DNA of 23,803 bases from a virus (Duplodnaviria; Heunggongvirae; Uroviricota; Caudoviricetes), in the IMG/VR virus record IMGVR_UViG_2563366943_000008, positions 1 through 23,803 of that record. One strand, given 5' to 3'. The notes beneath the pieces are model-generated. The model made no database searches. It saw nothing but the letters and a program-made list of their open reading frames with translations, and was not told where the DNA came from. Shown here in pieces: positions 3,543 through 23,803 of the stretch (positions are counted from its first letter, which is position 1; each line of letters opens with the position of its first letter). Position numbers and translations under genes: made by a program.

Positions 3543-4046
3543 TTATTGATAGTGTTTTATGTTCAGATAATGCCCGATGACTTTGTCATGCAGCTCCACC
3601 GATTTTGAGAACGACAGCGACTTCCGTCCCAGCCGTGCCAGGTGCTGCCTCAGATTCAGGTTATGCCGCTCAATTCGCTGCGTATATCGCTTGCTGATTA
3701 CGTGCAGCTTTCCCTTCAGGCGGGATTCATACAGCGGCCAGCCATCCGTCATCCATATCACCACGTCAAAGGGTGACAGCAGGCTCATAAGACGCCCCAG
3801 CGTCGCCATAGTGCGTTCACCGAATACGTGCGCAACAACCGTCTTCCGGAGCCTGTCATACGCGTAAAACAGCCAGCGCTGGCGCGATTTAGCCCCGACA
3901 TAGCCCCACTGTTCGTCCATTTCCGCGCAGACGATGACGTCACTGCCCGGCTGTATGCGCGAGGTTACCGACTGCGGCCTGAGTTTTTTAAGTGACGTAA
4001 AATCGTGTTGAGGCCAACGCCCATAATGCGGGCTGTTGCCCGGCAT
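3543..4046 (-). CDS. insB: IS1 InsB reading frame (expressed as the InsAB' transposase by -1 frameshift)
   Basis: 167-aa ORF overlapping the 3' end of insA in the -1 frame; sequence matches IS1 InsB. Confidence 0.85.
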
Positions 4047-4240
4047 CCAACGCCATTCATGGCCATATCAATGATTTTCTGGTGCGTACCGGGTTGAGAA
4101 GCGGTGTAAGTGAACTGCAGTTGCCATGTTTTACGGCAGTGAGAGCAGAGATAGCGCTGATGTCCGGCGGTGCTTTTGCCGTTACGCACCACCCCGTCAG
4201 TAGCTGAACAGGAGGGACAGCTGATAGAAACAGAAGCCAC
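3965..4240 (-). CDS. insA: IS1 InsA (transposition repressor / N-terminal part of transposase)
   Basis: 91-aa [43 protein letters not shown], a zinc-finger plus HTH protein matching IS1 InsA. Confidence 0.9.
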
Positions 4241-4304: not shown

Positions 4305-6410
4305 ATGGCTAAAGCATGGAAAGATGTTATCGCCTCTCCACAGTATCAGGCGTTAGCACCAGAACAAAAAGCGCAGGCTCAGGAGCAATACTTCAATGAA
4401 GTCGTGGCCCCGCAAGCCGGAGAAAGTGTAGCGCAGGCTAAGCAGGCTTTTTATGCTGCCTATCCACTACCATCAACGAATGAAATAGACCGATCCCAAT
4501 CAGCAACTCAAAATATTCAACATACATCATCTGATAATTCTCTTGCGTCAGGGTATGCAAAGTTAGCTACTCAGCAAAGAGAGGGGCTTGAGCGTTCAGC
4601 AGAACAGGGAGCCAGTCTTGGGGCTGCGATGCGCGATGCTATAACAGGCGAAAGCCGAATGACTCCAGAGATGGAGAGACTGCAAAATGTCGACCTTGCC
4701 CCAGAGTTAACCTCACTCAGCATGGGTGCTCTAAAAGCTCGATGGTCTCAACTTTTCGGCTCTGACGCATCTCAGGAAAAGATTCTTCAGAGCATGGGAG
4801 CGAAATTAAGGCAGGATGAGAAGGGTAACACTATCGTTTCCCTGCCATCCGGTGATTATGCTCTGAACAAGCCGGGTTTATCGCCGCAAGACGTGGCATC
4901 GTTTCTGGCTAATGCGCTGGCGTTTACACCAGCGGGCAGGGCTGGAACGGTGCTTGGTGCCATAGGAAAATCAGCAGCTACAGATTTAGCACTACAGGGA
5001 GCCACCAGCCTTGCTGGTGGAGAAGATATTGATCCGTTACAAACGGTAATTTCTGCTGGCATTGGTGGTATTGGTAAGGGGCTGGAAAATACAGCGAGTG
5101 CGGTTTCGAGGGCTGTTCGTGGTGATATGTCGCCTGAAGCAAAGGCTGCTGTCAACTTTGCATCGGAAAGAAATCTGCCGTTAATGACCAGTGACATGCT
5201 GAAAGATAAAACCTTTATGCAGAGTCAGGCTCAGACATTAGGCGAAAGAGTTCCTTTTTTTGGAACCGGTAAGAATCGGCTGAATCAACAACAAGCACGA
5301 GAAAATTTAGTCAGAACATTTAGCGATGGTCTGGGTGGCATTTCTGATAAACAGCTTTATGAATCTGCGACTAAAGGGCAACAAAAATTCATTGAGGCAG
5401 CAGGAAAGCGATATAACCGCATAATTGACGCTATGGGGGATACCCCTGTCGATCTCTCAAACACGGTAAAAGCTATCGACAATCAGATTGCCGTGTTAAG
5501 CCGCCCGGGCAAATCTCAGGATAGAGCCGCGGTAAAAGTCTTGCAGCAATTTAAAGACGATATCACCAGCGGACCAAATGACCTGCGTCTGGCGAGGGAA
5601 AACAGAACCGATCTTCGAAAGCGATTTATGGCGTCATCTGACACTGTTGATAAAGATACGCTCCAGAAAGCCAGCGATATTATCTACAAGGCATATACGG
5701 CGGATATGAAAAAAGCCGTAGCCAAAAATCTTGGAGCAGACGAAGCCATTAATATGGCAAGGGTTGATCGGTCATGGTCTAAATTCAATGACATGATGGG
5801 AAGAACGCGCGTTCAAAAGGCAATAGCCAGCGGTAAGGCCACGCCTGAGGATGTAACAAAACTCGTTTTTAGCCAAAGCCCATCAGAACGTTCTCAGCTT
5901 TACAGGCTTCTGGATGACAATGGTAGGCAAAACGCACGAGCAGCCATAGTTCAGAATGCTGTAGATAAGGCGACTGATCCGTCTGGAAATATCAGTGTTG
6001 AGAAGTTTATTAATGCGTTACACCGGAACAGGAAGCAATCAGCAACTTTCTTTAAAGGCGTACATGGAAAGGAACTGGACGGCGTTATTAAATACCTCAA
6101 CGATACAAGACACGCGGCAAAAGCGAACGTTCAAAACTTAAATGGTCAGCAGCTTTATGGATTGTTAGTTGGTGGTGGCATCATAAACGCAGCAGTATTA
6201 GCGGGGATGCTAAAAACGGCTGCGTTTGTTGTTCCTGCTGCTGGTGCCGTAGGCGGAGCAGCGAAGGCATACGAAAGCCCTGTTATACGAAATGCCTTGT
6301 TACGTCTGGCAAATACGCCAAAAGGTAGCACAGCATATGACAGAGCGATCAGTACGGTCACACAATCGCTCACCAGAGTCGCACAGGCATCACAAAAAGA
6401 AGCTCAATAA
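4305..6410 (+). CDS. large Ala/Gln/Lys-rich helical protein with C-terminal Gly/Ala-rich hydrophobic segment (function unknown; tape-measure-like or pore-forming-toxin-like)
   Basis: 701-aa ORF with consistent coding character. First ATG lies 9 bp after the IS1 end, preceded by an in-frame TGA and no Shine-Dalgarno, so the native N-terminus and promoter may be missing. About 37-residue hydrophobic stretch LYGLLVGGGIINAAVLAGMLKTAAFVVPAAGAVGGAA near the C-terminus. Confidence 0.5.
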   Translation: MAKAWKDVIASPQYQALAPEQKAQAQEQYFNEVVAPQAGESVAQAKQAFYAAYPLPSTNEIDRSQSATQNIQHTSSDNSLASGYAKLATQQREGLERSAEQGASLGAAMRDAITGESRMTPEMERLQNVDLAPELTSLSMGALKARWSQLFGSDASQEKILQSMGAKLRQDEKGNTIVSLPSGDYALNKPGLSPQDVASFLANALAFTPAGRAGTVLGAIGKSAATDLALQGATSLAGGEDIDPLQTVISAGIGGIGKGLENTASAVSRAVRGDMSPEAKAAVNFASERNLPLMTSDMLKDKTFMQSQAQTLGERVPFFGTGKNRLNQQQARENLVRTFSDGLGGISDKQLYESATKGQQKFIEAAGKRYNRIIDAMGDTPVDLSNTVKAIDNQIAVLSRPGKSQDRAAVKVLQQFKDDITSGPNDLRLARENRTDLRKRFMASSDTVDKDTLQKASDIIYKAYTADMKKAVAKNLGADEAINMARVDRSWSKFNDMMGRTRVQKAIASGKATPEDVTKLVFSQSPSERSQLYRLLDDNGRQNARAAIVQNAVDKATDPSGNISVEKFINALHRNRKQSATFFKGVHGKELDGVIKYLNDTRHAAKANVQNLNGQQLYGLLVGGGIINAAVLAGMLKTAAFVVPAAGAVGGAAKAYESPVIRNALLRLANTPKGSTAYDRAISTVTQSLTRVAQASQKEAQ

Positions 6411-10562: not shown

Positions 10563-10582
10563 TCCTATTATCGCACAATCAA
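10563..10582. other. degenerate direct repeat of the tRNA-Thr 3' end (candidate attR core of module 1)
   Basis: TCCTATTATCG-CAC-AATCAA aligns with tRNA 3' end TCCTATTATCGGCACCATTCAA (1428-1449): 11/11 identical, then gapped similarity. Lies about 60 bp beyond the second TGGGGGTA pair. Confidence 0.45.
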
Positions 10583-11341: not shown

Positions 11342-12153
11342 AAAATCTCCAGAACGCAACAGGACGCATTCTAACGCTATTTTCATTGCTTGGTATAGGG
11401 ATGTATAGGTGATGTGTGTTTAATGCGTCTGTGCGCTTGTTTTGTGCCTTATTTTGCATTTTCATAATGCAGAAGAGAACACGGAAAACCTTAAAATTAA
11501 TTATTGGGGTATTTAAGGGTATTTTCAGGTGATTTAAGGGTATTAAACTTGATTTAATTGATTAAAATATAAACAGATAGTTGTGTATCTTATTGATTTA
11601 TAAGGTTATTTTTAAATAAAGGTAAATAAAAAATAAATAGCCATAAATAGCTATAAATACATCTAAATACCTATATCCCTTCCCTTATGGCTAGATTGCG
11701 AGAGGTGCTTAACGCGATTTTCAGCGCCCCCCGATCTGGAAAATCCAGAATCCCCAAATATCAGCAAGGAATTTTCTTGCGTAATCAACATCGTTTTTAC
11801 CTATTAAATCATTACACAGAAAGCCTTTCTGTAATGTCTCTCACTAAACTTTCACTAAACACGAGAATGATCGGTTTTATGTCGGATCAGATGCTAGAAA
11901 CAGCACCACGTCTCACAAGGACTGTAAGCGATGAAACCAGTGTTTATGCGGGTGCAGGTCAAAATATAGGCCAAAATCAATTTAACATAATAAACGTAAT
12001 ATGCACTAAGGAACACATAGAACGCCTTGAGTTGATGTATCAGGGGAAAAGTGATGGATTTTTTACGTAGGAGCACGAGAGGGCTTCTGTTGACTTTTGT
12101 ATGCTATGAAACATAATTAAAGGTTTTTTTGTTTTTATTGTGTGATGTAGTGG

Positions 12154-13127
12154 ATTACACAGGGGAATAGATTAAATGGTGTTCTGTTTATACAGGTTTA
12201 TTTGTTAGATCAACAATTTGGCATTTCTAAACAGATGTTTGAACGTTGCCAAATGTCTTGACAACACAAGAAAAGGGCTTGCTATGCCACGCATTACACG
12301 AAATAAGGCTGTAAAAACAAAATAAATTTTAAAATTTGCACAAACGAGAAAACTCGTTAAGAAACAAGCAGAACAATTTTTAGCCAACAATTTCTGATGG
12401 TGCTCTGTAGGCCGCACTACACAAGGATTTGCGAAAGTGATGTAAAAGTGAAGAAAGTAAGAATTGCACTTTTAAGCTACTTTTCATTGAATTTTTAGTA
12501 TGGAATTACACAGGAATAAGTTAGGGATATTCTATGATTTACACAGGGAATATAGGGGATTATGGCACACACATAGAAAGGCATTACACAGAGTGAGTGC
12601 TATGTGATGATTGGTAGTAACGGTAGGTCATAGTGAGCTAGGGGGTAGGTCACTGTGAACTACAATAAGACTATTAATAAAACTATATTAGATTATTAAT
12701 TAGATCATAATAATAATATTCTTTATATCTATATATATGATCTTTTGCCTTCCGGCGTTAGCTTCACTCTCTGGCAAGCAGCCTTACTCCGCTACCTTTC
12801 GGGCTTCGTGGCTGGCCCGTTCCGCTCACACCGAAAGCAAAGCGTTACTTTCTTCGTGTAACTTCGTTGGCGGTAACGCCCACGAAGAAATCTATTGCGC
12901 TGTGCGCAGTAAGAGTAATCACCTAACCAATCATACTGATTGCTTATGTGTTAACTCTCTCTAACTCTTAATTACCCTCCTACATTTAATAACTCTGTTA
13001 TTCTCTGTAGTTGTGTAATTACTCGAAGAGAGAGCGGCTAAAGCTCAATTACACTCTGCTTTCCTCGTGTAATTTCACTAAGCCTCAATACAATTTCACT
13101 TCCTACATTCTGTAGTCGTGTAATTGT
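12154..13127. repeat. iteron field flanking an AT-rich tract and GC-rich core (origin-like region)
   Basis: Direct copies of (A/T)TTACACAGG(G/A)AATA at 12154, 12505, 12538 and 12583, plus variants at 12293 and 12417. Inverted copies CGTGTAA(T/C) at 12855, 13012, 13066 and 13117. 17-bp repeat TCTGTAGT(T/C)GTGTAATT at 13004 and 13110. GGTAGGTCA repeats at about 12625 and 12649. Extremely AT-rich tract at about 12660-12745. Confidence 0.5.
12745..12915. ncRNA. candidate structured RNA or single-strand initiation element (strand undetermined)
   Basis: GC-rich patch inside AT-rich DNA. Hairpin CTTCGTTGGCG-GTAA-CGCCCACGAAG (12862-12887; 10 of 11 positions pair, GNRA-type tetraloop). Hairpin CGGGC-N10-GCCCG (12800-12819). 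Long-range complementarity CTTACTCCGC (12783-12792) with GCGCAGTAAG (12904-12913). The overlapping 75-aa ORF has a non-protein-like sequence. Confidence 0.25.
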
Positions 13128-13761
13128 TTTCGGTGGAAAAGCCAGAGGCGACACCGAAAGAGAATTCTGATCTTATTAATCTTATCTATCTTAGTTAATC
13201 TTCTTACTTATCTTACTTACTTTATCTACTTTATTATTAATAATAGCTTTATAAGCTCTCTGTGTAGCTCTCTGACGCAAGAAACAGCATTCAGGAAGGG
13301 AATCACCTTAGAAAAGGTGTTCTTTGCGTCATAATGTGTTTTATGAAGGATTCAGAGGTGTTTCATAACAGGAATGTATAGAGAATACTTTAGGTAATTA
13401 AAAATAAGGGGTCTAAATGCTTCTCTAACAGCATTAAGCAGGGTAGGGAATGGAAACGCATTGCCTACATATAATAAACTCACTACAGGGCTTTACAGGG
13501 CGTTTTATAAAGCGACTCTCTGTTTTATATCTACAATCACCTTTTCATATACCTAACAAATACAAAATAAGCCCCTTAAATAAGCCTCTGGCGAGCTAAA
13601 CAGACATTACATAAGAGAATGTATTGCTTTTATCAAAACTTCGTTAGAACGCGTTTTAGAGCGTTTTAGCGGATAATGAAGAATAGCACTACACAGAAGA
13701 GCACGAATTGCTAAGACAAATTATAACATGCTGAAAAAGATCGATTTTTTCGAAAAGGGTA

Positions 13762-13790
13762 TTGACAAATGTTTCTTTATATGTAATAAT
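13762..13790 (+). promoter_or_regulatory. sigma70-like promoter upstream of the rightward small-gene array
   Basis: TTGACA at 13762-13767, 16-17 bp spacer, TAATAA(T) at 13784-13790. The -35 is embedded in GGGTATTGACA, sharing the GGGTATT motif seen elsewhere in the element. Confidence 0.4.
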
Positions 13791-13903
13791 AGGTATTAGA
13801 GGGACAGAAAAACATTCTTCTCTAAATAATCAAAATCAATGCACTTTGAAGCCGTCAGGCTTGCAAGGTGTTTTATTTCTTTTAACTGAATAAGGAGTTT
13901 TTT

Positions 13904-14092
13904 ATGAAATGGTTTACACCGGAGCACGTCGTAAAGGCATTTAAAAAAGGTGAGCTTACACGCCACCAAATAGTAATGAATCGTAATATGGCAAGGAGTC
14001 GAGGTTATCCAGAGCGAGCAGCTTGCTTCAATGAAGCACTCAAGATTATTGATGAACTAAGAAAAAATGAAAAAGAATCTGAAACAGAGTAA
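13904..14092 (+). CDS. hypothetical small protein (62 aa)
   Basis: ATG preceded by TAAGGAG Shine-Dalgarno at optimal spacing; first gene downstream of the promoter. Confidence 0.5.
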   Translation: MKWFTPEHVVKAFKKGELTRHQIVMNRNMARSRGYPERAACFNEALKIIDELRKNEKESETE

Positions 14093-14282: not shown

Positions 14283-14335
14283 TTTTTATCACCATAGTAG
14301 CGCCATAGAGCGTGATTACATCAAGGAGATTTTTA

Positions 14336-15028
14336 ATGATTAACCAACTAACTTTTACAAAACACTATGACACGTTTGATAATATATCAAAGATTTATTC
14401 TGATAAATTCCCTCAAGGAAAAGATTTAGATCTATTACATATTGTGCTTTATTTTCGATTCCTTAGTTATCAGGAAAACAACCTTAATTGTTATGAAAGT
14501 CACGAAACATTAGCTAAGATTTTTAAGTCTTCACCATCAACAATTAAACGTAAGATAAACGATCTTAAAGAGATGGGATTATTAGAAACATCCCCACATC
14601 CTGATCCGTATATTTCATCTTTGATTTACAATGCTCTCCCTCTCACAGATGCACATATTACTCCCCCAGGAGAATCATCACTCTCTGATCTTTCTGAGGC
14701 AGAAGAAGCACAGGAACAACCTAAAGGCCATAAACAGCCTTCTTTTGATGTTCTTGATGATGATTGGGATACGCCTTTACCCTGGGAGACGGAAGAAACA
14801 CCTGTTTCATCAAGTGAAAAGGTAGCTAATGATAATGAGGAGGATGTGTTAGAGAATTTTGCCTCTCTTATCATCCAGGAGAAACACAAAAGAACAGGAG
14901 GGGCATCATTTATAGAATTTGCAAATTCACTAGCTTGTAGATACGGGCTAAAACGACCAAATGGTATTGAGGCATATTTTTCTAAGCATTACCCAAATGT
15001 ATACGAAGACTTTGATATTCCCTTTTAA
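14336..15028 (+). CDS. putative winged-helix DNA-binding protein with acidic C-terminal tail (replication-initiator / replisome-organiser-like)
   Basis: ATG at 14336 with AAGGAG 9 nt upstream (ORF track starts at 14312). N-terminal segment ETLAKIFKSSPSTIKRKINDLKEMGLLE is a typical HTH. C-terminal third is strongly acidic (DDDWDTPLPWETEETP...EEDVLENF). Confidence 0.45.
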   Translation: MINQLTFTKHYDTFDNISKIYSDKFPQGKDLDLLHIVLYFRFLSYQENNLNCYESHETLAKIFKSSPSTIKRKINDLKEMGLLETSPHPDPYISSLIYNALPLTDAHITPPGESSLSDLSEAEEAQEQPKGHKQPSFDVLDDDWDTPLPWETEETPVSSSEKVANDNEEDVLENFASLIIQEKHKRTGGASFIEFANSLACRYGLKRPNGIEAYFSKHYPNVYEDFDIPF

Positions 15029-16235: not shown

Positions 16236-16264
16236 TTGACATTCCATCTATTGTATGTTAATAT
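16236..16264 (+). promoter_or_regulatory. near-consensus sigma70 promoter
   Basis: TTGACA (16236-16241), 17-bp spacer, TAATAT (16259-16264). Confidence 0.5.
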
Positions 16265-16550: not shown

Positions 16551-16763
16551 ATGTTGCTCTTAAATGATAAAGAGCAAATCATCAAGTATAAAGATGAAAT
16601 GCTGAAAATTAATCCACAAATTACCGAAATGGTAGCTAAATACGCTGGGTGTTCTGTCGAGGAAGTAGAAAGATGTGTTGAAAAATATTTTTCTCCTTCT
16701 TCTCCGTCTACACCTTCCCTTAATGAATTAATCAAATTAAAAGCTAAGGAGATTACTAAATGA
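16551..16763 (+). CDS. hypothetical small protein (70 aa)
   Basis: ATG at 16551; stop overlaps the start of the next gene (ATGA). Weak Shine-Dalgarno. Confidence 0.4.
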   Translation: MLLLNDKEQIIKYKDEMLKINPQITEMVAKYAGCSVEEVERCVEKYFSPSSPSTPSLNELIKLKAKEITK

Positions 16764-17122
16764 TTATTGATTTAGACACTCTGTTTCCAGTTCGAAAGAC
16801 TTTCACGGATATTGTAAGTTATTGTACTGATCCGTTTGCCTCTGTAGAAAGCAAGGTTTTTGCTTCTCTTCCTGCTGATGTTGAGTGCGGCGACTTGATC
16901 ACCAGCACTGGCGCTAAATATGAATCAGGAGATGATATTTATGTTGTTATGAGTGAATTTGTAACGGCTGGAGAAAACAAGCCTGTAGATGTGCTACGTA
17001 GCAATGCTGGGCTTGTATGCATCAAAGCTGATGCGCTGAATGCTGTAAGTGAAGCAGCAAAAACAGCATTAATTAAAAAAGGCTTTCAGCTTGAAGGGTT
17101 CCATTCTGTTTTCACTTCTTAA
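16760..17122 (+). CDS. hypothetical protein, 120 aa (position and size compatible with a head-decoration or scaffold-like protein)
   Basis: AAGGAG Shine-Dalgarno 9 nt upstream. Immediately precedes the capsid-like gene, as gpD precedes gpE in lambda. No direct sequence support. Confidence 0.45.
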   Translation: MIIDLDTLFPVRKTFTDIVSYCTDPFASVESKVFASLPADVECGDLITSTGAKYESGDDIYVVMSEFVTAGENKPVDVLRSNAGLVCIKADALNAVSEAAKTALIKKGFQLEGFHSVFTS

Positions 17123-17140: not shown

Positions 17141-18169
17141 ATGATTCTAGGTAATGATTACGTTGATTTAGCTCCTCTGTTCTCTGCGCATAGCACTAGA
17201 AATTATCTACTTTCTACTCTCGACTTCACTGATCCGGTGGGCGTTAGTTCTCATAAAGTAGCTGTTTCCCAGCTTGTCGAAAGCAACGAATCTCTCTTTA
17301 ACAAAGAGACAAGCCGTTTTAGTTCTGAACACAATGTTACTAAGCGAGAACAAGGTAAAGAATGGCTGATCGAAATCCCTTACTTCCTGCGTGAAGATGT
17401 GATCCGTCCTTCTGATGTTCAAGGCAAGCGTAAGCCTGGCACTGATTTTCAGGAAACACTCACTGATATTTATGCTGACTATGTTGCTAAACACCACGTA
17501 GCGTATCAGCGTACAAAAGAGAGCGTGCTGGCTGCATCTCTGTTTAGCGGTAAAACTTACACGCCTAAAACTGATGATGTTCTTATCGAGTGGAGCAAGC
17601 TGTTTAACGTATCAGCTATGAAAGCCACTGTGAACGCTTCCAGCACTGACACCACGAAGATTTTTAAAGAATTTGATCAGATTGCTACTGACATTATCGA
17701 AAAAGCACAGAGTCAGGCGGCGGCTGTAGAGCGAATTGTTGTTTTCTGTAAGCCGGAAGCCTTCTCTGCAATTCGATTCTCTGCTGGTATGGCAAACGCA
17801 TTCCAGTATGTAAGCCCACTGGAAGAGGGGAACGTTGTGTATCAGCGTCGTGACCTGCTGCCAGGGGTGACAGCGTTCACTATTCCAGGAACTAACATTG
17901 ATGTTGTTAAACTGGTAGATCCGCTACACCTGGCACATATGACCGCAGACGCTGTAGCTGTGCCTAAATTCTCTAAGGGTAGCGGAATTTATACCAACAT
18001 CTACGGGGCTGCTTCCAGCACCTTTGAACTGATTAATGCCGCTCCTGCTGAGGTGTATAGCTATAGCTATGAATCTTCTCGTGGTGATGCTGTTAACGTT
18101 GTTACAGAGAATAGCCAGATGGTGGTAAACCACGGTGTAGGCTTCTCCGTTCAAATCACTGTTAAATAA
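17141..18169 (+). CDS. putative major capsid protein (lambda gpE-like / HK97-fold candidate), 342 aa
   Basis: Length close to lambda gpE (341 aa). Local resemblance IVVFCKPEAFSAIRFS versus lambda IIVFDPKGWALFRS as recalled from memory. No signal peptide or enzymatic motif. Followed by a strong intrinsic terminator, consistent with a highly expressed structural gene. Confidence 0.4.
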   Translation: MILGNDYVDLAPLFSAHSTRNYLLSTLDFTDPVGVSSHKVAVSQLVESNESLFNKETSRFSSEHNVTKREQGKEWLIEIPYFLREDVIRPSDVQGKRKPGTDFQETLTDIYADYVAKHHVAYQRTKESVLAASLFSGKTYTPKTDDVLIEWSKLFNVSAMKATVNASSTDTTKIFKEFDQIATDIIEKAQSQAAAVERIVVFCKPEAFSAIRFSAGMANAFQYVSPLEEGNVVYQRRDLLPGVTAFTIPGTNIDVVKLVDPLHLAHMTADAVAVPKFSKGSGIYTNIYGAASSTFELINAAPAEVYSYSYESSRGDAVNVVTENSQMVVNHGVGFSVQITVK

Positions 18170-18187: not shown

Positions 18188-18224
18188 AGGCGTGGCGTGA
18201 ATAACACGCTTCGCCTTTTTTTAT
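18188..18224 (+). terminator. rho-independent terminator
   Basis: AGGCGTGGCGTG-AATAA-CACGCTTCGCCT stem-loop (10 of 12 stem positions pair) followed by TTTTTTTATTTATTTTT. Confidence 0.75.
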
Positions 18225-18255: not shown

Positions 18256-18459
18256 ATGGAAGTGATTTTGAAATCAAAAAATGGTGTACACGTACATTTA
18301 GATGCTAATGATTCTAGAGGATTGTTAAATCTGAAATATCTCTGTTCTCTTTTAGATGTTCCCTATGAAGGAGTAAAAGCCCGTATGTTCAGATTAAACG
18401 AGAGTATTGATCAGGCTCTACACCATTTCTTAAGCAAAGAAGGTGGTAAAAATGATTAA
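18256..18459 (+). CDS. hypothetical small protein (67 aa)
   Basis: ATG with GAGAGGTGA Shine-Dalgarno-like sequence; lies between the terminator and the next gene. Confidence 0.4.
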   Translation: MEVILKSKNGVHVHLDANDSRGLLNLKYLCSLLDVPYEGVKARMFRLNESIDQALHHFLSKEGGKND

Positions 18460-19378
18460 TAAGGGGATTTTAAATGTTAGAAATTAACACTTCTAAAATT
18501 AAGAACACAGTAACATTTAGTGTAGATAAAGACAGCTTGAAAAAAGCGAAAGACTCTATTACAGGCTTAAAGGAATTTGCAGAGAATATCAAGCCAGCTA
18601 AGTTAAGGTTTGATAATGTCACTAAAGGCTATAAGAAAGCACAAAGTGAAGTAGACAAGATTGCTCAACAGAAAGCTAAAGCCGAAAAACAGAATCAAAG
18701 AGTACAAGCTGCCGCAGCAAGAGCACAGGCAAGGCAACAGCAACAAATAGCAGCACGTAAAGAGAAAGCAGAATTAAAACTCCTCGATGTGTCAAGCTCT
18801 ATCAGTGCAATGCACCGTCTCTCTGTAGCTGAACAATACAAAGCTATTGCACAGGCTAGAGAAATTGCCCTCCAATATGAAAGAGGCGCTATTAGTCTGG
18901 CACGTATGAATAGCCAGATGAAACGCTTACAACAGCAACAACGTAAGATTAATGGCAACAGAAAAGCACAATTAGCCCCCGTTAAGGGAGGATCAGGGAA
19001 TTCCGCCACTATGGGCGCTCTGTTATTTGGAGGCGCTACGGCTGCTGCTGGCGTGATGGCTGTTAGTAAAGCGTCGGAGTTTGTTAGTAGCAGTTTCGCT
19101 AACGCAGAGACCCAAGGGGAGCTAATCCAACGTGCAAGGCTTGGCGGTGTAGACGTTAACCAGATGTATAATATTACAGAATGGGCGTATAGAAACGGCG
19201 TTGACTCTATGATGGGTGATCAAGGGGCTAGGAAATACCTGGATCAGATGAAAGATGTTAGGGAACGTGCCGCAAAATCCTACAGTGAAGCTGAATTGGT
19301 GAAAGACAAGAAAACCGGAAAATCTGAATGGAAAGGCGGTGATAATGCTATTAATGAACTTCTAAACTGGATTTGCCC

Positions 19379-20284
19379 CTATATTTCCAGACATCTGTTA
19401 TCACTTAACCCATTACAAGCCCGCTGCCGCAGATATTCCCGTGGCGAGCGATAACCCAGCGCACTATGCGGATGCCATTCGTTATAATGCTCGAACGCCT
19501 CTGCAAGGTTCTTTGCTGCCGTTAACCCGTCTGGTTTGGGCATGATACTGATGTAGTCACGCTTTATCGTTTTCACGAAGCTCTCTGCTATTCCGTTACT
19601 CTCCGGACTCCGCACCGCCGTGTTCTTCGGTTCAAGTCCCAACATCCGGGCGAACTGGCGTGTTTCATTAGCCCGGTAGCATGAACCATTATCCGTCAGC
19701 CACTCCACTGGAGACGACGGAAGATCGTTGCCGAAGCGGCGTTCCACCGCTCCCAGCATGACGTCCTGTACTGTTTCACTGTTGAAGCCGCCGGTAGTGA
19801 CCGCCCAGTGCAGTGCCTCACGATCACTGCAGTCCAGCGCGAACGTGACACGCAGTCTCTCTCCGTTATCACAGCAGAACTCGAACCCGTCAGAGCACCA
19901 TCGCTGATTGCTTTCTTTCACGGCCACTCTGCCTGTATGTGCCCGTTTCGATGGCGGTACAGCAGGTTTTCGCTCAAGCAACAGCGCATTCTGGCGCATG
20001 ATCCGGTAAACACGTTTGGCATTGATCGCAGGCATACCATCAAGTTCTGCCTGTCTGCGAAGCAGCGCCCATACCCGACGATAACCATACGTGGGCAGCT
20101 CTCCGATAACATGGTGTATACGGAGAAGCACATCCGTATCATCAGTGTGACGACTGCGGCGGCCATCCATCCAGTCATCGGTTCGTCTGAGAATGACGTG
20201 CAACTGCGCACGCGACACCCGGAGACAACGGCTGACTAAGCTTACTCCCCATCCCCGGGCAATAAGGGCGCGTGCGCTATCCAC
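19379..20284 (-). CDS. insD: IS2 OrfB (InsD) transposase catalytic (DDE) domain; expressed as OrfAB by frameshift
   Basis: 301-aa ORF overlapping insC; sequence matches IS2 InsD. Confidence 0.88.
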
Positions 20285-20607
20285 TTTTTTGCCCGTCCAT
20301 ATTCAACGGCTTCTTTGAGGAGTTCATTTTCCATCGTTTTCTTGCCGAGCAGGCGCTGGAGTTCTTTAATCTGCTTCATGGCGGCAGCAAGTTCAGAGGC
20401 AGGAACAACCTGTTCTCCGGCGGCGACAGCAGTAAGACTTCCTTCCTGGTATTGCTTACGCCAGAGAAATAACTGGCTGGCTGCTACACCATGTTGCCGG
20501 GCAACGAGGGAGACCGTCATCCCCGGTTCAAAGCTCTGCTGAACAATTGCGATCTTTTCCTGTGTGGTACGCCGTCTGCGTTTCTCCGGTCCTAAGACAT
20601 CAATCAT
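20242..20607 (-). CDS. insC: IS2 OrfA (InsC) transposase N-terminal / regulatory protein
   Basis: 121-aa product [53 protein letters not shown] matches IS2 InsC (HTH). Confidence 0.9.
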
Positions 20608-21673
20608 CTGCTCTCCAATGACTAGTCTAAAAACTAGTATTAAGACTATCACTTAAATAAGTGATACTGGTTGTCTGGAGATTCAGGGGGCCAGTCTATA
20701 AACATCGGTGTTATTAACAAAAGCGACCTTAAAAAATTTGCTGATAATCCGGCTGGATTAATTTCTAAGGCTGTTAATGGAATGATGAAAAAAGGGTTTT
20801 CAGACTCCCAAATTGGACAACGTTTAGAAGACCTGGGCGATGATTTGATGCTTACGTCAAAATATTGGCAACGTTCCGTTAAAGATGTACAAGAAAGTAT
20901 TAATCAGCAAAAAGCCTCTGGAAAATGGCTAACAGAAACACAGCAAGACTCTATTGTTAAATTCAGAGAACTAAACAGACAGCTTTCACAGCTTTCTGAT
21001 GCAAGACAAGTAGCATTCGTAGACGGCTTTATGAAATCTCTCGATCCAAAAGTAACGGAAGAGTTTATGAAAAACCTTTCTAATCTCACTCCGTATTTTA
21101 CGAAGCTGGGAGAAGCTACAGGAAGTCTCTTTGAAGCTATTATGAAGATTGTAAACTGGTTTAATCGTAATGATGATAAGACAGATGCTATTCAGAAAAA
21201 TATGGGTGATGCACCGCCATTAAGCAATGAAGGGATGAAACAGAATCTTTCTAATCTCGTTCCTAATCAATATAAAGGCGCTGGCACTGCAACAACTACA
21301 CCTGATAATAGTCATTCTCTCTTTAACACAATTAAGGGATTGCTTTTCGATGATAATTCTTCTGTGTCAGATGTAAAAATGTCAGTCAATGAAGCACCGA
21401 TAACCAATCTCAAACAGGGTGCTTTAAATAATCTTGCAATGACAACTCCAGCTTATAATTTATCTCCTGTGTTTAATCTGAATCCTACATTTGAAGTGGT
21501 AACAGAAGTGCCGCTAACTATCGAATCAGACACCGGACGATTGAGCGATTATGTGGATTTTACAGCGAGAGCAAGTCGGGATAGCTTCTTGAAATCATTA
21601 ACATTAACCAGCTTATCAGGACAATCCAACGGCGGGTAATTCCCGCCATAACATTACAAGGAAAATTATTATT

Positions 21674-22387
21674 ATGGCGACCGCCGGGATTTTAACCATA
21701 CGTGCAGCAAATACTCCAGAACAACACGTTCAGGCTGTTTACAAAGCAGAACAAGATATAAATTCTACAAAAAACGAAAATAGCAAAGCTAATAAAACAA
21801 AAGGAGAGAACGGATTTGCTATTGTTACCAGTGGCTTGGCATCTTCTGGTAATGACGTTTATGAAAATTATATGGCACTGGCCTTTGATAGTGTTGACGA
21901 TGTGAACGTGAGACGTTCGGCAGATGTCACAAGCTACCCCGTAGAAAATGGTGCTACTGTGTCTGATCACGTTCAAATTAAAAACAATAAGTTCTCTCTT
22001 AAAGGGCGTATCACTGAAACACCGATTAAAAGCGATCCTGGCTTGTTAAAGAGTGCAGGGGTGAACGGGAACAGAAGATCATTAGCTATAGACTACTTGA
22101 ATCAGATTATGGACAGTAGACAGCCTTTTCTTCTTGTTACAGAAAATAAAACTTTTGAGAACGTTGTTTTAACAGGCATCGAATACACAGAAGAGGCAAG
22201 CGAATCCCTGGTATTTGATCTTAGCTTTGAACAAATAAGATTAGTTTCTTATGGTACTGTAAACACTGTAGCTATCAAAACACAGCCATCTAAGAACATC
22301 GGGGCGAATATGAAAAAACGTGTTAACACTGAAAAATCAAGTAGTGAAGGTGAAGACACTATTACTCCTGCCTTTAAACAGGAATAG
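21674..22387 (+). CDS. hypothetical protein (237 aa), predicted beta-rich
   Basis: ATG with AAGGA upstream; last gene of the rightward array. No recognisable motif. Confidence 0.45.
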   Translation: MATAGILTIRAANTPEQHVQAVYKAEQDINSTKNENSKANKTKGENGFAIVTSGLASSGNDVYENYMALAFDSVDDVNVRRSADVTSYPVENGATVSDHVQIKNNKFSLKGRITETPIKSDPGLLKSAGVNGNRRSLAIDYLNQIMDSRQPFLLVTENKTFENVVLTGIEYTEEASESLVFDLSFEQIRLVSYGTVNTVAIKTQPSKNIGANMKKRVNTEKSSSEGEDTITPAFKQE

Positions 22388-22468: not shown

Positions 22469-23803
22469 CTATGGCGTTGTTTTGCGCATTAAATTTGATT
22501 TTTTATTGATTGATAAGCCTTTCTCTATTTCAGGGTAGCGTAGAAGCTCAATATAGTTTTTAAGCTCTACTGGAGAAGCTGCATTCTTGCTATATGTGCG
22601 GAATGTCTCTGTATTGCCGCGTGTATGGCCCAGGAGAAGGGCGATCCTGTCTTCTGGAATTTGATTTCGATCAAGAAGCTGTGCTACTCCGTGTCTCAGA
22701 GAATGAAACACCTTCCTTTCTGTTCCCTTTTCCCCTAAAGCCTTTCGTTTAGCTCTTGTAAATCTCTGCGTGTGCCACGTGGAACGTTTACCATCAGCAC
22801 GCTCTGTAATGCTGGCGTGATAGAACAAAAAGCCATTATGAGGCTTTTCACGCAGCGACAACACCAACGGAGTGATAAGGCTATGCACAGGCACAAGACG
22901 TGCCGCAGCTTTCGTTTTTCCCTGTGTGATTTCAAAACACAGCACACCTTCGATCTCTTTCACATCGTCTATTGTGAGACTTGCTATCTCATTGATCCGC
23001 ATACCTGTATAAGCACCGATAAGACACAAAGCCATCATTTCTTTGTTTTCTGCTGAATCACCGGAAAATACTTGCAACACCTGCAATAGCTCTTTGTTAG
23101 AAAATGCCTCGTAGCTCTCTCTACTTTGTGCCACATCAAGCCTATGCCCTCGCCAGGGGGAGAGCGCCCTTTCTGGCGCATCGTGGTAACGTGATGAAGC
23201 TAACTCCCATAGCTGGGCCATTGGGCTGATATAATTTGCAATTGATTGTTGTGAAAGGGTTTTTTGCATGTGTTCTATCCAGCCTGTAACAGTGGTGCGG
23301 CTTACATCTTGCAATGCAATATCAGGCTTTTTACGGTAGGAGAGAAACATCTCTACCGCTTTTCTTGCCTTAGCTAAAGTGGCTGGCTTCTTCTTCGTGC
23401 TGTTAATTGTCAGGTAGATTTCAAGAATTTTAAGCAATGACGGACACGAAGACGCTGTATCTTGCATTCTGGTAGCTGTTTTGGCGTATTTAGCCTTACT
23501 GCGTAACAGTTCCAGCGTGTTCTCTATTGTGCTGTTTACAGGGGCGACACTCTCCCGTAGACAATGGTATTCATCTGCAATCTGATCACGCTTTCTACGT
23601 GCAACACGAAGACTACTTGTGTGCAGACTTCTGACAAACGTCCTTTTTCCTTCAAAAAAGGGCTGCATATACACAGGCAACGTGATCCTCAAATAGTAGT
23701 TACCGTAAGAATCACAGATTATGTATTGATTGGGCTTGTATCTCATAAACTCCCCGGCTAAAGTGTCGGAGCGTTTGTAATGTGAAAATTGATTGTAACG
23801 CAT
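22469..23803 (-). CDS. tyrosine integrase / site-specific recombinase (second, distinct family), 444 aa
   Basis: Start ATG at 23801-23803 (window edge). C-terminal catalytic motifs GMRINE, HSLRHGVAQLL, LLGHT and a downstream Tyr typical of tyrosine recombinases. Clearly different sequence from the first integrase. Confidence 0.85.
   Translation of the reverse strand: MRYNQFSHYKRSDTLAGEFMRYKPNQYIICDSYGNYYLRITLPVYMQPFFEGKRTFVRSLHTSSLRVARRKRDQIADEYHCLRESVAPVNSTIENTLELLRSKAKYAKTATRMQDTASSCPSLLKILEIYLTINSTKKKPATLAKARKAVEMFLSYRKKPDIALQDVSRTTVTGWIEHMQKTLSQQSIANYISPMAQLWELASSRYHDAPERALSPWRGHRLDVAQSRESYEAFSNKELLQVLQVFSGDSAENKEMMALCLIGAYTGMRINEIASLTIDDVKEIEGVLCFEITQGKTKAAARLVPVHSLITPLVLSLREKPHNGFLFYHASITERADGKRSTWHTQRFTRAKRKALGEKGTERKVFHSLRHGVAQLLDRNQIPEDRIALLLGHTRGNTETFRTYSKNAASPVELKNYIELLRYPEIEKGLSINKKSNLMRKTTP

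Follow-up and report, generated by a model that had tools for sequence, protein, structure and literature searches.

An island at thrW of Escherichia coli carries an IS2-interrupted tape measure gene of the phi92 gp134 family and may be a phage satellite

Introduction

The described phage satellites closest to the locus analyzed here are PLE, the cf-PICIs, and P4. PLE of Vibrio cholerae is a small integrated island that appears to be tied to one lineage of virulent myophages, that of its helper ICP1; it has its own integrase and replication initiator and relies on the structural and packaging proteins of the helper, whose coat it is described as remodeling by means of the external scaffold TcaP (PMC10945586). 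The cf-PICIs are chromosomal islands that encode an HK97-type capsid protein within a complete head module (portal, protease, connectors, small terminase, and HNH), carry no tail genes, and steal tails. P4, the satellite of P2, is about 12 kb long, integrates at a tRNA gene, contains a copy of the P2 cos site, and uses Sid, Psu, Delta, and a primase, with no virion proteins of its own. Here, we analyzed a stretch of 23,803 nucleotides (nt), referred to below as the window (IMG/VR virus record IMGVR_UViG_2563366943_000008, positions 1 to 23,803), in which the insertion sequence (IS) IS2 splits the gene for a tail tape measure protein (TMP) on a small chromosomal island at the tRNA gene thrW.

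The window originates from the Escherichia coli isolate AF3 (NZ_OZ547117.1; blood culture, UK) and spans proA, tRNA-Thr(CGT), and the accessory DNA behind it. The nearest characterized relatives of its tail genes belong to the virulent phage phi92, for which cryo-electron microscopy has described gp134 as a trimeric TMP with its C-terminus in the baseplate and gp135 as a hexameric tube initiator (PMC13450770). From its gene content and non-coding sequences, we consider it rather probable that the island is a satellite of virulent 145-155-kb myophages of the Stephanstirmvirinae, namely the phi92-like Justusliebigvirus and the phAPEC8-like Phapecoctavirus.

Results and Discussion

An IS2 insertion in an otherwise intact gene

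The interrupted gene and the inserted element comprise the following features, given in window coordinates.

18474-19367, plus strand: 5' portion of the TMP gene (codons 1-298); translation continuing into IS2 would end at 19454 and yield a truncated product of 326 amino acids (aa)
19363-19367, no strand: left copy of the target-site duplication TAAAC, read directly from the sequence
19368-20698, minus strand: IS2, 1331 bp, with transposase orfA/orfAB at 19379-20607, an A6G frameshift site, and imperfect terminal inverted repeats
20699-20703, no strand: right copy of the target-site duplication TAAAC, read directly from the sequence
20704-21639, plus strand: 3' part of the TMP gene, codons 299-609 and stop; the alignment with phi92 gp134 reaches the shared C-terminal LTL..SGQS motif

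A sequence-only reading of this DNA had placed IS2 at 19368-20698 between perfect 5-bp TAAAC repeats, and both copies were confirmed, directly flanking the 1331 bp between them. The element begins with TGGATTTGCCCC and ends with GGGGGCCAGTCTA, which align as imperfect inverted repeats. Its minus strand contains two overlapping open reading frames (ORFs), 19379-20284 and 20242-20652, and a single A6G slippery site (AAAAAAG, position 409 of the transposase strand); RefSeq/PGAP annotates it as an IS3-like element IS2 family transposase with programmed frameshift. With a 6-kb query that included the element, 2594 E. coli records matched at 99% identity or more, the IS accounting for nearly all of these matches. 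Every property of IS2 testable here was thus found, namely a size of about 1.33 kb, imperfect inverted repeats, the 5-bp duplication, the orfA/orfB overlap, and near-identity.

When IS2 was excised in silico, positions 18474-19367 and 20704-21639 joined into 1830 nt, corresponding to 609 codons and a stop with zero internal stops. The restored junction reads ...NELLN|IGVINKS..., exactly as the sequence-only reading had stated, and places IS2 between codons 298 and 299. RefSeq/PGAP marks both flanking halves as pseudogene fragments, the 5' part as missing its C-terminus, and no further lesions were found in either half. Uninterrupted alleles are abundant in other genomes: intact clusters of 608-614 aa with 95-97% identity comprise thousands of sequences, found in E. 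coli, E. fergusonii, and E. albertii. Because the junction is in frame and intact homologues exist, neither of the two findings that would speak against a split gene was made.

The earlier suggestion that IS2 entered a functional gene recently also holds, given the unlesioned halves, the frequency of intact alleles, and the low pairwise substitution ratios of those alleles (0.14-0.29, described below). Among 5426 complete E. coli genomes, only AF3 matched the 6-kb query without interruption; the query aligned elsewhere as two pieces skipping the IS, which indicates that the other strains carry an empty site. The same IS2, at the same site and with the same duplication, was present in an IMG/VR provirus of another, near-identical isolate (L026), with 0 differences in 1331 bp. 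Since AF3 and this second isolate share an identical allele, the insertion is recent yet already inherited within a lineage. The restored gene was found in 486 of the 5426 genomes (about 9%), always on the chromosome, and its carriers include O104:H4 HUSEC2011, O103 and O111 strains, and APEC O1. In some genomes, the TMP gene was only partly retained (matches H141 and H163).

The IS2 allele is a recent, predicted null allele of the island TMP. Its C-terminal half, the part expected to dock at the baseplate, would be lost, and the 326-aa fragment would keep the coiled coil and the hydrophobic segment. The tube initiator gene that follows is probably co-transcribed with the TMP gene and hence exposed to polarity from IS2. 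Such polarity is likely because the 35-nt spacer between the two genes contains no convincing promoter; a promoter scan of this gap gave no good match. In itself, the insertion is ordinary, an event of routine genome erosion that carries little weight, and the interest lies in the element that hosts it.

The interrupted gene encodes a tape measure protein of the phi92 gp134 family

The guess, made from composition, that the 609-aa protein resembles tape measure or injection proteins was borne out for the former by profile searches. The protein matched PHROG 16051, "tail length tape measure protein", with an E value of 6.5e-52 (residues 154-609 on positions 230-659 of the 660-position profile), and its sole match in the PDB was Phi92_gp134 (21vq_V, E value of 1.2e-38). 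Among the phage matches listed, all were phi92-like or phAPEC8-like myophages of 130-154 kb, at 34-38% identity. A three-way TMP alignment was colinear end to end with phi92 gp134. Landmarks common to the two proteins are the blocks KDVRER, WKGGD, and LGDDLM, a hydrophobic segment rich in Gly and Ala, and LTL..SGQS at the C-terminus. At the N-terminus, 24 of the first 25 residues agree with phi92, and the corresponding nucleotides match at 64 of 75 positions; many of the nucleotide differences at this 5' end are therefore synonymous.

The composition zones noted from the sequence are real. Residues 1-170 are rich in Ala, Lys, and Gln; in residues 171-200, Ala makes up 27% and Gly 23%, and hydrophobicity peaks at 179-197, where the protein aligns with the hydrophobic segment of gp134; and residues 461-609 are rich in Leu, Ser, Asn, and Thr. 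The gene order is also conserved, the TMP gene (to 21639) being followed by the tube initiator gene (from 21674), as gp134 is by gp135 in phi92. By the criteria of sequence and synteny, the interrupted gene is a tape measure of the phi92 gp134 family.

We consider it very unlikely that the 609-aa protein is instead a membrane or ejection protein of another kind. A Pfam scan of the protein gave no match, the RefSeq/PGAP label on some alleles is "flotillin family protein", and a hydrophobic segment together with a coiled-coil-like composition would suit such a protein. Nevertheless, the alignment extends over the full length of gp134, which is modeled as a trimeric TMP inside the baseplate, the protein fits a PHROG tape measure family, and its gene lies directly upstream of a tube initiator, as in phi92.

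The likeness to phi92 thus covers full-length homology, the order of landmarks, the gene order, and a tube initiator 60.5% identical to gp135. The differences are equally clear. Outside its first 66 residues, the island TMP is only about 31% identical to gp134, is 50 aa shorter, and is without the Gly-rich insert of gp134. Furthermore, gp134 belongs to a phage genome of 148 kb, whereas the island TMP gene lies in a 12-kb element of the chromosome that has no genes for a sheath, tube, hub, or chaperone.

Architecture of the thrW island

The window contains two tandem islands at thrW (tRNA-Thr). The one that carries the TMP gene, Island B, is bounded on the left by a degenerate core repeat (10563-10578) and on the right by attR, which lies about 100 nt beyond the end of the window, and measures 13,348 bp with IS2 and 12,012 bp without it, so that IS2 adds 11% to its length. 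Its GC content is 38.8%, compared with 37.9% in phi92 and 54.9% in the flanking proA. From left to right, Island B consists of about 3.3 kb that are nearly gene-free by annotation, small ORFs, a winged-helix gene, five small ORFs, the capsid gene, a 67-aa ORF, the TMP gene, the tube initiator gene, and the integrase gene on the opposite strand. Besides the split TMP gene, the main features are as follows.

10563-10578, no strand: degenerate attL of Island B, TCCTATTATCGCACA compared with TCCTATTATCGGCACCA in the tRNA; junction with the second, tRNA-proximal island
14336-15028, plus strand: winged-helix, replication-initiator-like protein of 230 aa (ATG at 14336); Pfam HTH_36 and PHROG replication-initiation families
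16760-17122, plus strand: conserved 120-aa ORF directly upstream of the capsid gene, in the same slot as the phi92 cement protein
17141-18169, plus strand: HK97-type major capsid protein of 342 aa; Pfam Phage_cap_E 2.5e-14, PDB 9zbi_A 6.9e-11, phi92 gp124 1.8e-5
18256-18459, plus strand: conserved 67-aa ORF between the capsid and TMP genes, with syntenic homologues in Enterobacter and Klebsiella islands
21674-22387, plus strand: Dit-like tail tube initiator of 237 aa; Pfam Dit_like 3.4e-29, PDB 21vq_N E value of 2.1e-78, 60.5% identity to gp135
22469-23746, minus strand: tyrosine integrase of 425 aa; attR follows shortly after the end of the window and would be numbered about 23890-23910

The large ORFs of Island B are limited to the capsid protein, TMP, tube initiator, and integrase, and the island also encodes about eight small conserved proteins. 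No match to a terminase, portal, protease, sheath, tube, or hub protein was found among its ORFs in Pfam, PHROGs, or NCBIfam. The winged-helix protein is 29% identical (E value of 3.6e-8) to gp053 of phage Mt1B1_P17, a homologue of about 330 aa that is conserved in phi92-like and phAPEC8-like phages. Using BLASTP, no similarity was detected between the 67-aa ORF and phi92 gp133, or between the 120-aa ORF and the phi92 cement protein gp123. Searches of the small ORFs in PADLOC, NCBIfam, Pfam, and PHROGs returned nothing beyond weak helix-turn-helix (HTH) matches, and single-sequence AlphaFold2 models of the 136-aa and 120-aa ORFs were unusable, with mean predicted local distance difference test scores (pLDDT) of 31.9 and 41.3.

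Generic features of satellites are present: the island has its own integrase with flanking attachment repeats, and essential virion and packaging genes are missing, so a helper would be needed. Judged by its gene content, the island conforms to the general structural description of a satellite.

Variants, selection, and relatives in other genera

The same Island B architecture occurs in strains 2014C-3061 and 47-1826, and a diverged variant in O104:H4 HUSEC2011. We calculated pairwise ratios of nonsynonymous to synonymous substitution rates (dN/dS) across the alleles of the window island, 2014C-3061, 47-1826, and the HUSEC2011 type, and obtained 0.14-0.29 for the TMP, 0.12-0.15 for the capsid protein, 0-0.12 for the tube initiator (the protein being identical at a dS of about 0.1), and 0.04-0.13 for the integrase. 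These values indicate that intact TMP alleles are under purifying selection. Between the window island and the HUSEC2011 type, the integrases are 97% identical, but identity falls to 63% for the TMP and 60% for the tube initiator, and the proteins in the capsid slot are unrelated (17%); the structural module therefore turns over much faster than the backbone.

Homologues of the tube initiator with 48-56% identity were found on chromosomes of Enterobacter, Klebsiella, Citrobacter, Kluyvera, Cronobacter, Kosakonia, and other genera. Outside E. coli, we examined two island contexts, one from E. hormaechei and one from a Klebsiella-type metagenome contig. Both begin with a small recombinase gene, which a gap of 1.7-2.3 kb separates from a run of small ORFs with an HTH gene among them. 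Next come the genes for a capsid protein of the Phage_cap_E family, a TMP-like protein (595-622 aa), and a Dit-like protein, and a cargo gene followed by the integrase gene completes the order. Most ORFs of the window island, including small ones, have a syntenic homologue in these islands at 23-65% identity. The cargo gene, situated between those for the tube initiator and the integrase, encodes an EAL-domain protein (cyclic-di-GMP phosphodiesterase) in both islands (L049 10712-11383; L051 10717-11205) and is absent from the E. coli island.

These comparisons bear on the explanation that Island B is the decaying residue of a former prophage or of phage DNA that had been captured, with IS2 as a further neutral step of erosion. 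Several observations would fit it, since the island has no terminase, portal, sheath, or tube genes, its attL is degenerate in the window strain, and IS3, IS5, or IS2 insertions or truncated TMP genes occur in the same island of other strains. However, the gene set and order are kept from E. coli to Enterobacter and Klebsiella, and strong purifying selection acts on the TMP, capsid protein, tube initiator, and integrase. Because the syntenic ORFs are conserved in the Enterobacter and Klebsiella islands, simple prophage decay is unlikely.

Insertions in other copies of the island were recorded as follows. An IS3 lies in the 120-aa gene upstream of the capsid gene (L002 18714-19876), and other strains have IS5 copies, an IS3-family element, and an IS2 at a different position. 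The AT-rich island thus seems to be a frequent target of IS elements.

Non-coding sequences shared with phi92-like and phAPEC8-like phages

When the left half of Island B was compared by blastn with 50,697 phage records, only two short segments matched, and among the matches listed, all phages were phi92-like or phAPEC8-like. Three non-coding features of this part of the island are relevant.

11613-11669, plus strand: six TAAATA repeats with a spacing of 10-11 bp, adjoining the boundary mimic; bent DNA or iterons are possible
11690-11735, minus strand: terminal-repeat boundary mimic, with a 39-nt core at 11696-11734 identical to phi92 nt 319-357
14295-14343, plus strand: leader of the winged-helix gene (49-nt upstream region, ribosome-binding site, and start codon), 96% identical to the corresponding position of Mt1B1_P17 gp053

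The direct terminal repeat of phi92 is annotated as 343 bp long, so that nt 319-357 extend across its right end at nt 343. The 39-nt core was unchanged or nearly so in 14 of the 26 informative island loci, and the 131-nt region around it occurred in 427 of the 5426 E. coli genomes, in unannotated DNA and with a median of one copy each. In the HUSEC2011-type island, the position of the core is occupied by another sequence, which is 81% identical over 85 nt to Phapecoctavirus genomes (E value of 6e-13). Phage WPEC4 has a 328-bp repeat common to both of its genome ends, and the HUSEC2011-type match (273-357) crosses the right boundary of that repeat. The motif GTTR|AGCAC is common to the left and right repeat boundaries of both phi92 and WPEC4, and is a candidate for the terminase cut site of this phage subfamily. 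In the window, GTTA|AGCAC occurs once, within the core (11705-11713). The type of boundary site was associated with the type of TMP (10:1 vs 3:10, Fisher p = 0.001).

Likewise, the 49-nt leader of the winged-helix gene is a candidate regulatory element common to island and phage. Because the near-identity to phages sits in otherwise unalignable DNA, these patches are unlike relics, and they suggest either selected mimicry of cis-acting sites of a helper or recent exchange. For the remnant explanation, this is a further difficulty: non-coding patches that are 96-100% identical to present-day virulent phages lie amid unalignable DNA, and both annotation and published descriptions give the matching phages as virulent rather than temperate. 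In view of all these points, we regard decay as improbable.

Proposed mode of action and its alternatives

If the island is a satellite, its cycle might run as follows. Infection by a phi92-like or phAPEC8-like phage would switch the island on through its phage-like regulatory DNA, and the island would then replicate. The helper terminase would cut and package it at the copy of the direct-terminal-repeat boundary, and the island capsid protein would form capsids sized for about 12 kb, which is the size class of the small capsids of P4, SaPI, and PLE. Through the conserved ends that they share with the helper TMP, the island TMP and tube initiator would join tail assembly at the baseplate hub and the tail-completion machinery, and would either build satellite tails or spoil those of the helper. 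Loss of the island TMP in AF3 need not block transfer, because a TMP with the same conserved ends would be supplied by the helper phage itself.

A more specific proposal goes further, namely that the thrW island and its Enterobacter and Klebsiella relatives constitute an undescribed satellite family with its own capsid protein, TMP, and tube initiator, with cut-site variants that track the helper and with chimeric virions, in which the IS2 allele is a natural TMP knock-out. We put this forward tentatively, with belief and doubt close to balanced. A full-text literature search, in which coverage of subscription journals was incomplete, found no description of the island or of a satellite of these phages.

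Several results weigh against the satellite interpretation. Regarding mobility, the predicted circular attP junction had 0 matches in IMG/VR and JGI metagenome contigs, all island copies in IMG/VR are proviruses called in isolate genomes, and the repeat-boundary core was found in IMG/VR only in such proviruses and in phage genomes, with no virome-derived island copies. Regarding the boundary site, the L005-type site and the site of the Klebsiella island had no significant phage match in the collection, boundary-site and TMP types recombine and are not strictly linked, and we know of no experimental proof that the repeat boundary functions in packaging by these phages. Regarding the structural proteins, the island capsid protein is just 21% identical to phi92 gp124, and the capsid-slot protein of HUSEC2011 (343 aa; L004 10310-11341; flanking genes homologous) had no tblastn match in the 50,697 phage records. 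In addition, the frequent IS hits on the island in other strains could mean weak selection, and we know of no reason why a satellite should need a TMP of its own.

The failure to find evidence of packaging in the attP and virome searches would also be expected if the island served anti-phage defence. Its TMP, tube initiator, and capsid protein would then be poison subunits that abort the assembly of phi92-like tails and heads, and IS2 would have partly disarmed it. The island proteins are homologues of exactly those subunits that nucleate or size tails and heads, and they keep the ends through which the helper TMP interacts. Blocking of tail assembly is a documented defence by islands and prophages in the Tai systems (PMC11364771), which provide a precedent. 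The island itself was rejected as a Tai tail-assembly-inhibition system, as these consist of small unrelated proteins, so the precedent is functional only. Pure defence would leave unexplained the copy of the terminal-repeat boundary and the replication-like gene with its phage-type leader, as well as the integrase and attachment sites, which are conserved across genera, and no PADLOC model matched any island protein. The two roles are also compatible, since known satellites interfere with their helpers. We therefore judge pure defence to be unlikely and retain the satellite interpretation as the more probable one.

In either case, the evidence, all of it comparative, makes the interrupted gene probably a core gene of a new family directed at phi92-like and phAPEC8-like phages, whether of satellites or of defence elements. 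If so, no element of this kind would have been reported before for this phage group in the searchable literature, and both the host range and the yield of these phages could be affected. A satellite that encodes determinants of head size and tail length would represent a new route of hijacking, and the boundary copy would indicate where these phages have their packaging site, which is still uncharacterized. With the IS2 allele, a natural mutant is at hand for probing the role of the island TMP.

Other features of the window

The attL is intact in L002, L004, and L005 and degenerate in the window strain (TCCTATTATCG-CACAA vs TCCTATTATCGGCACCA). This degeneracy presumably results from the tandem integration of the other island and may hinder excision. 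In other copies of the island, a small recombinase gene adjoins the boundary mimic (L002 13077-13753); it is of the serine type in E. coli and of a tyrosine type of 186-192 aa in the Enterobacter and Klebsiella islands. In the window, this gene is replaced by 385 bp of unrelated sequence at 11763-12148. The AF3 copy of the island may thus be impaired in several ways, in its TMP, its attL core, and its small recombinase.

The stretch 11342-13904 (about 2.5 kb) is without an annotated gene in every strain examined, and a comparable gap exists in the Enterobacter and Klebsiella islands. It holds the boundary mimic, the TAAATA repeats, and patches (12376-12640 and 13528-14058) in which conservation relative to the HUSEC2011 variant is about 75%, and may provide an origin or other cis-acting functions. 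An Rfam scan found tRNA only.

A terminator-like hairpin lies just past the capsid gene (18194-18210), and near-consensus sigma-70 promoters are located at 13762-13790 and 16236-16264. Together they suggest an early operon, a late operon, and attenuation after the capsid gene, with the limit that the generic promoter and terminator scan of the island was overall not above chance. Neither the T4-type late promoter TATAAATA nor another phage-specific promoter common with phi92 was found in the island; the structural genes of phi92 have sigma-70-like promoters.

Island A (1445 to about 10562) lies between tRNA-Thr and Island B. It carries an integrase (1610-2824), an IS1 (3543-4240), a lone gene for a 701-aa DNA-ejection protein of the P22 gp16 family (4305-6410; PHROG 770, 3.6e-159), a PerC-like regulator, and a pRiA4b ORF-3-like gene.

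Comparison with known satellites and IS elements

As an IS event, the insertion agrees with ordinary E. coli IS2 insertions in its 1331 bp, 5-bp duplication, intact transposase, and AT-rich horizontally acquired target, with no difference in the insertion itself.

The island as a whole shares with PLE its small size, integrated state, own integrase and replication-initiator-like gene, and apparent tie to one lineage of virulent myophages. Reliance on helper structural and packaging proteins and variants that appear to track the helper are further likenesses, which we infer for the present island. PLE, which acts on the helper coat through an external scaffold, encodes neither a capsid protein nor a TMP nor a tube initiator, whereas the present island encodes all three. 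Sequence homology between the two was not seen, although no search aimed at it was made.

Like the cf-PICIs, the island is chromosomal and encodes an HK97-type capsid protein, which would form satellite-sized capsids. It differs in having the capsid protein alone from the head module and two tail-initiation genes in addition, whereas the cf-PICIs have the full head module and take their tails from elsewhere. Membership of the cf-PICIs was rejected, as Pfam and PHROGs revealed an incomplete head module and the presence of tail genes.

With P4, the island has in common a length of about 12 kb, integration at a tRNA gene, and a copy of a DNA-end or packaging sequence of the helper, the cos site of P2 in the case of P4. 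Unlike P4, it encodes virion proteins, and its helpers would be virulent phages with direct terminal repeats. Assignment to the P4-like satellites was also rejected, because Sid, Psu, Delta, and the alpha primase were unmatched among the island ORFs in Pfam, PHROG, and NCBIfam. The same applies to the classical PICIs, since AlpA, primase, and small terminase were unmatched and the replication-like gene is a phage-related winged-helix gene.

The carriage of a TMP and a tube initiator has, to our knowledge, no counterpart among described satellites. In the remaining respects, the present island would resemble a combination of known systems, with a lifestyle closest to that of PLE and ICP1, a capsid protein of its own like the cf-PICIs, and a copy of the DNA ends of its helper like P4.

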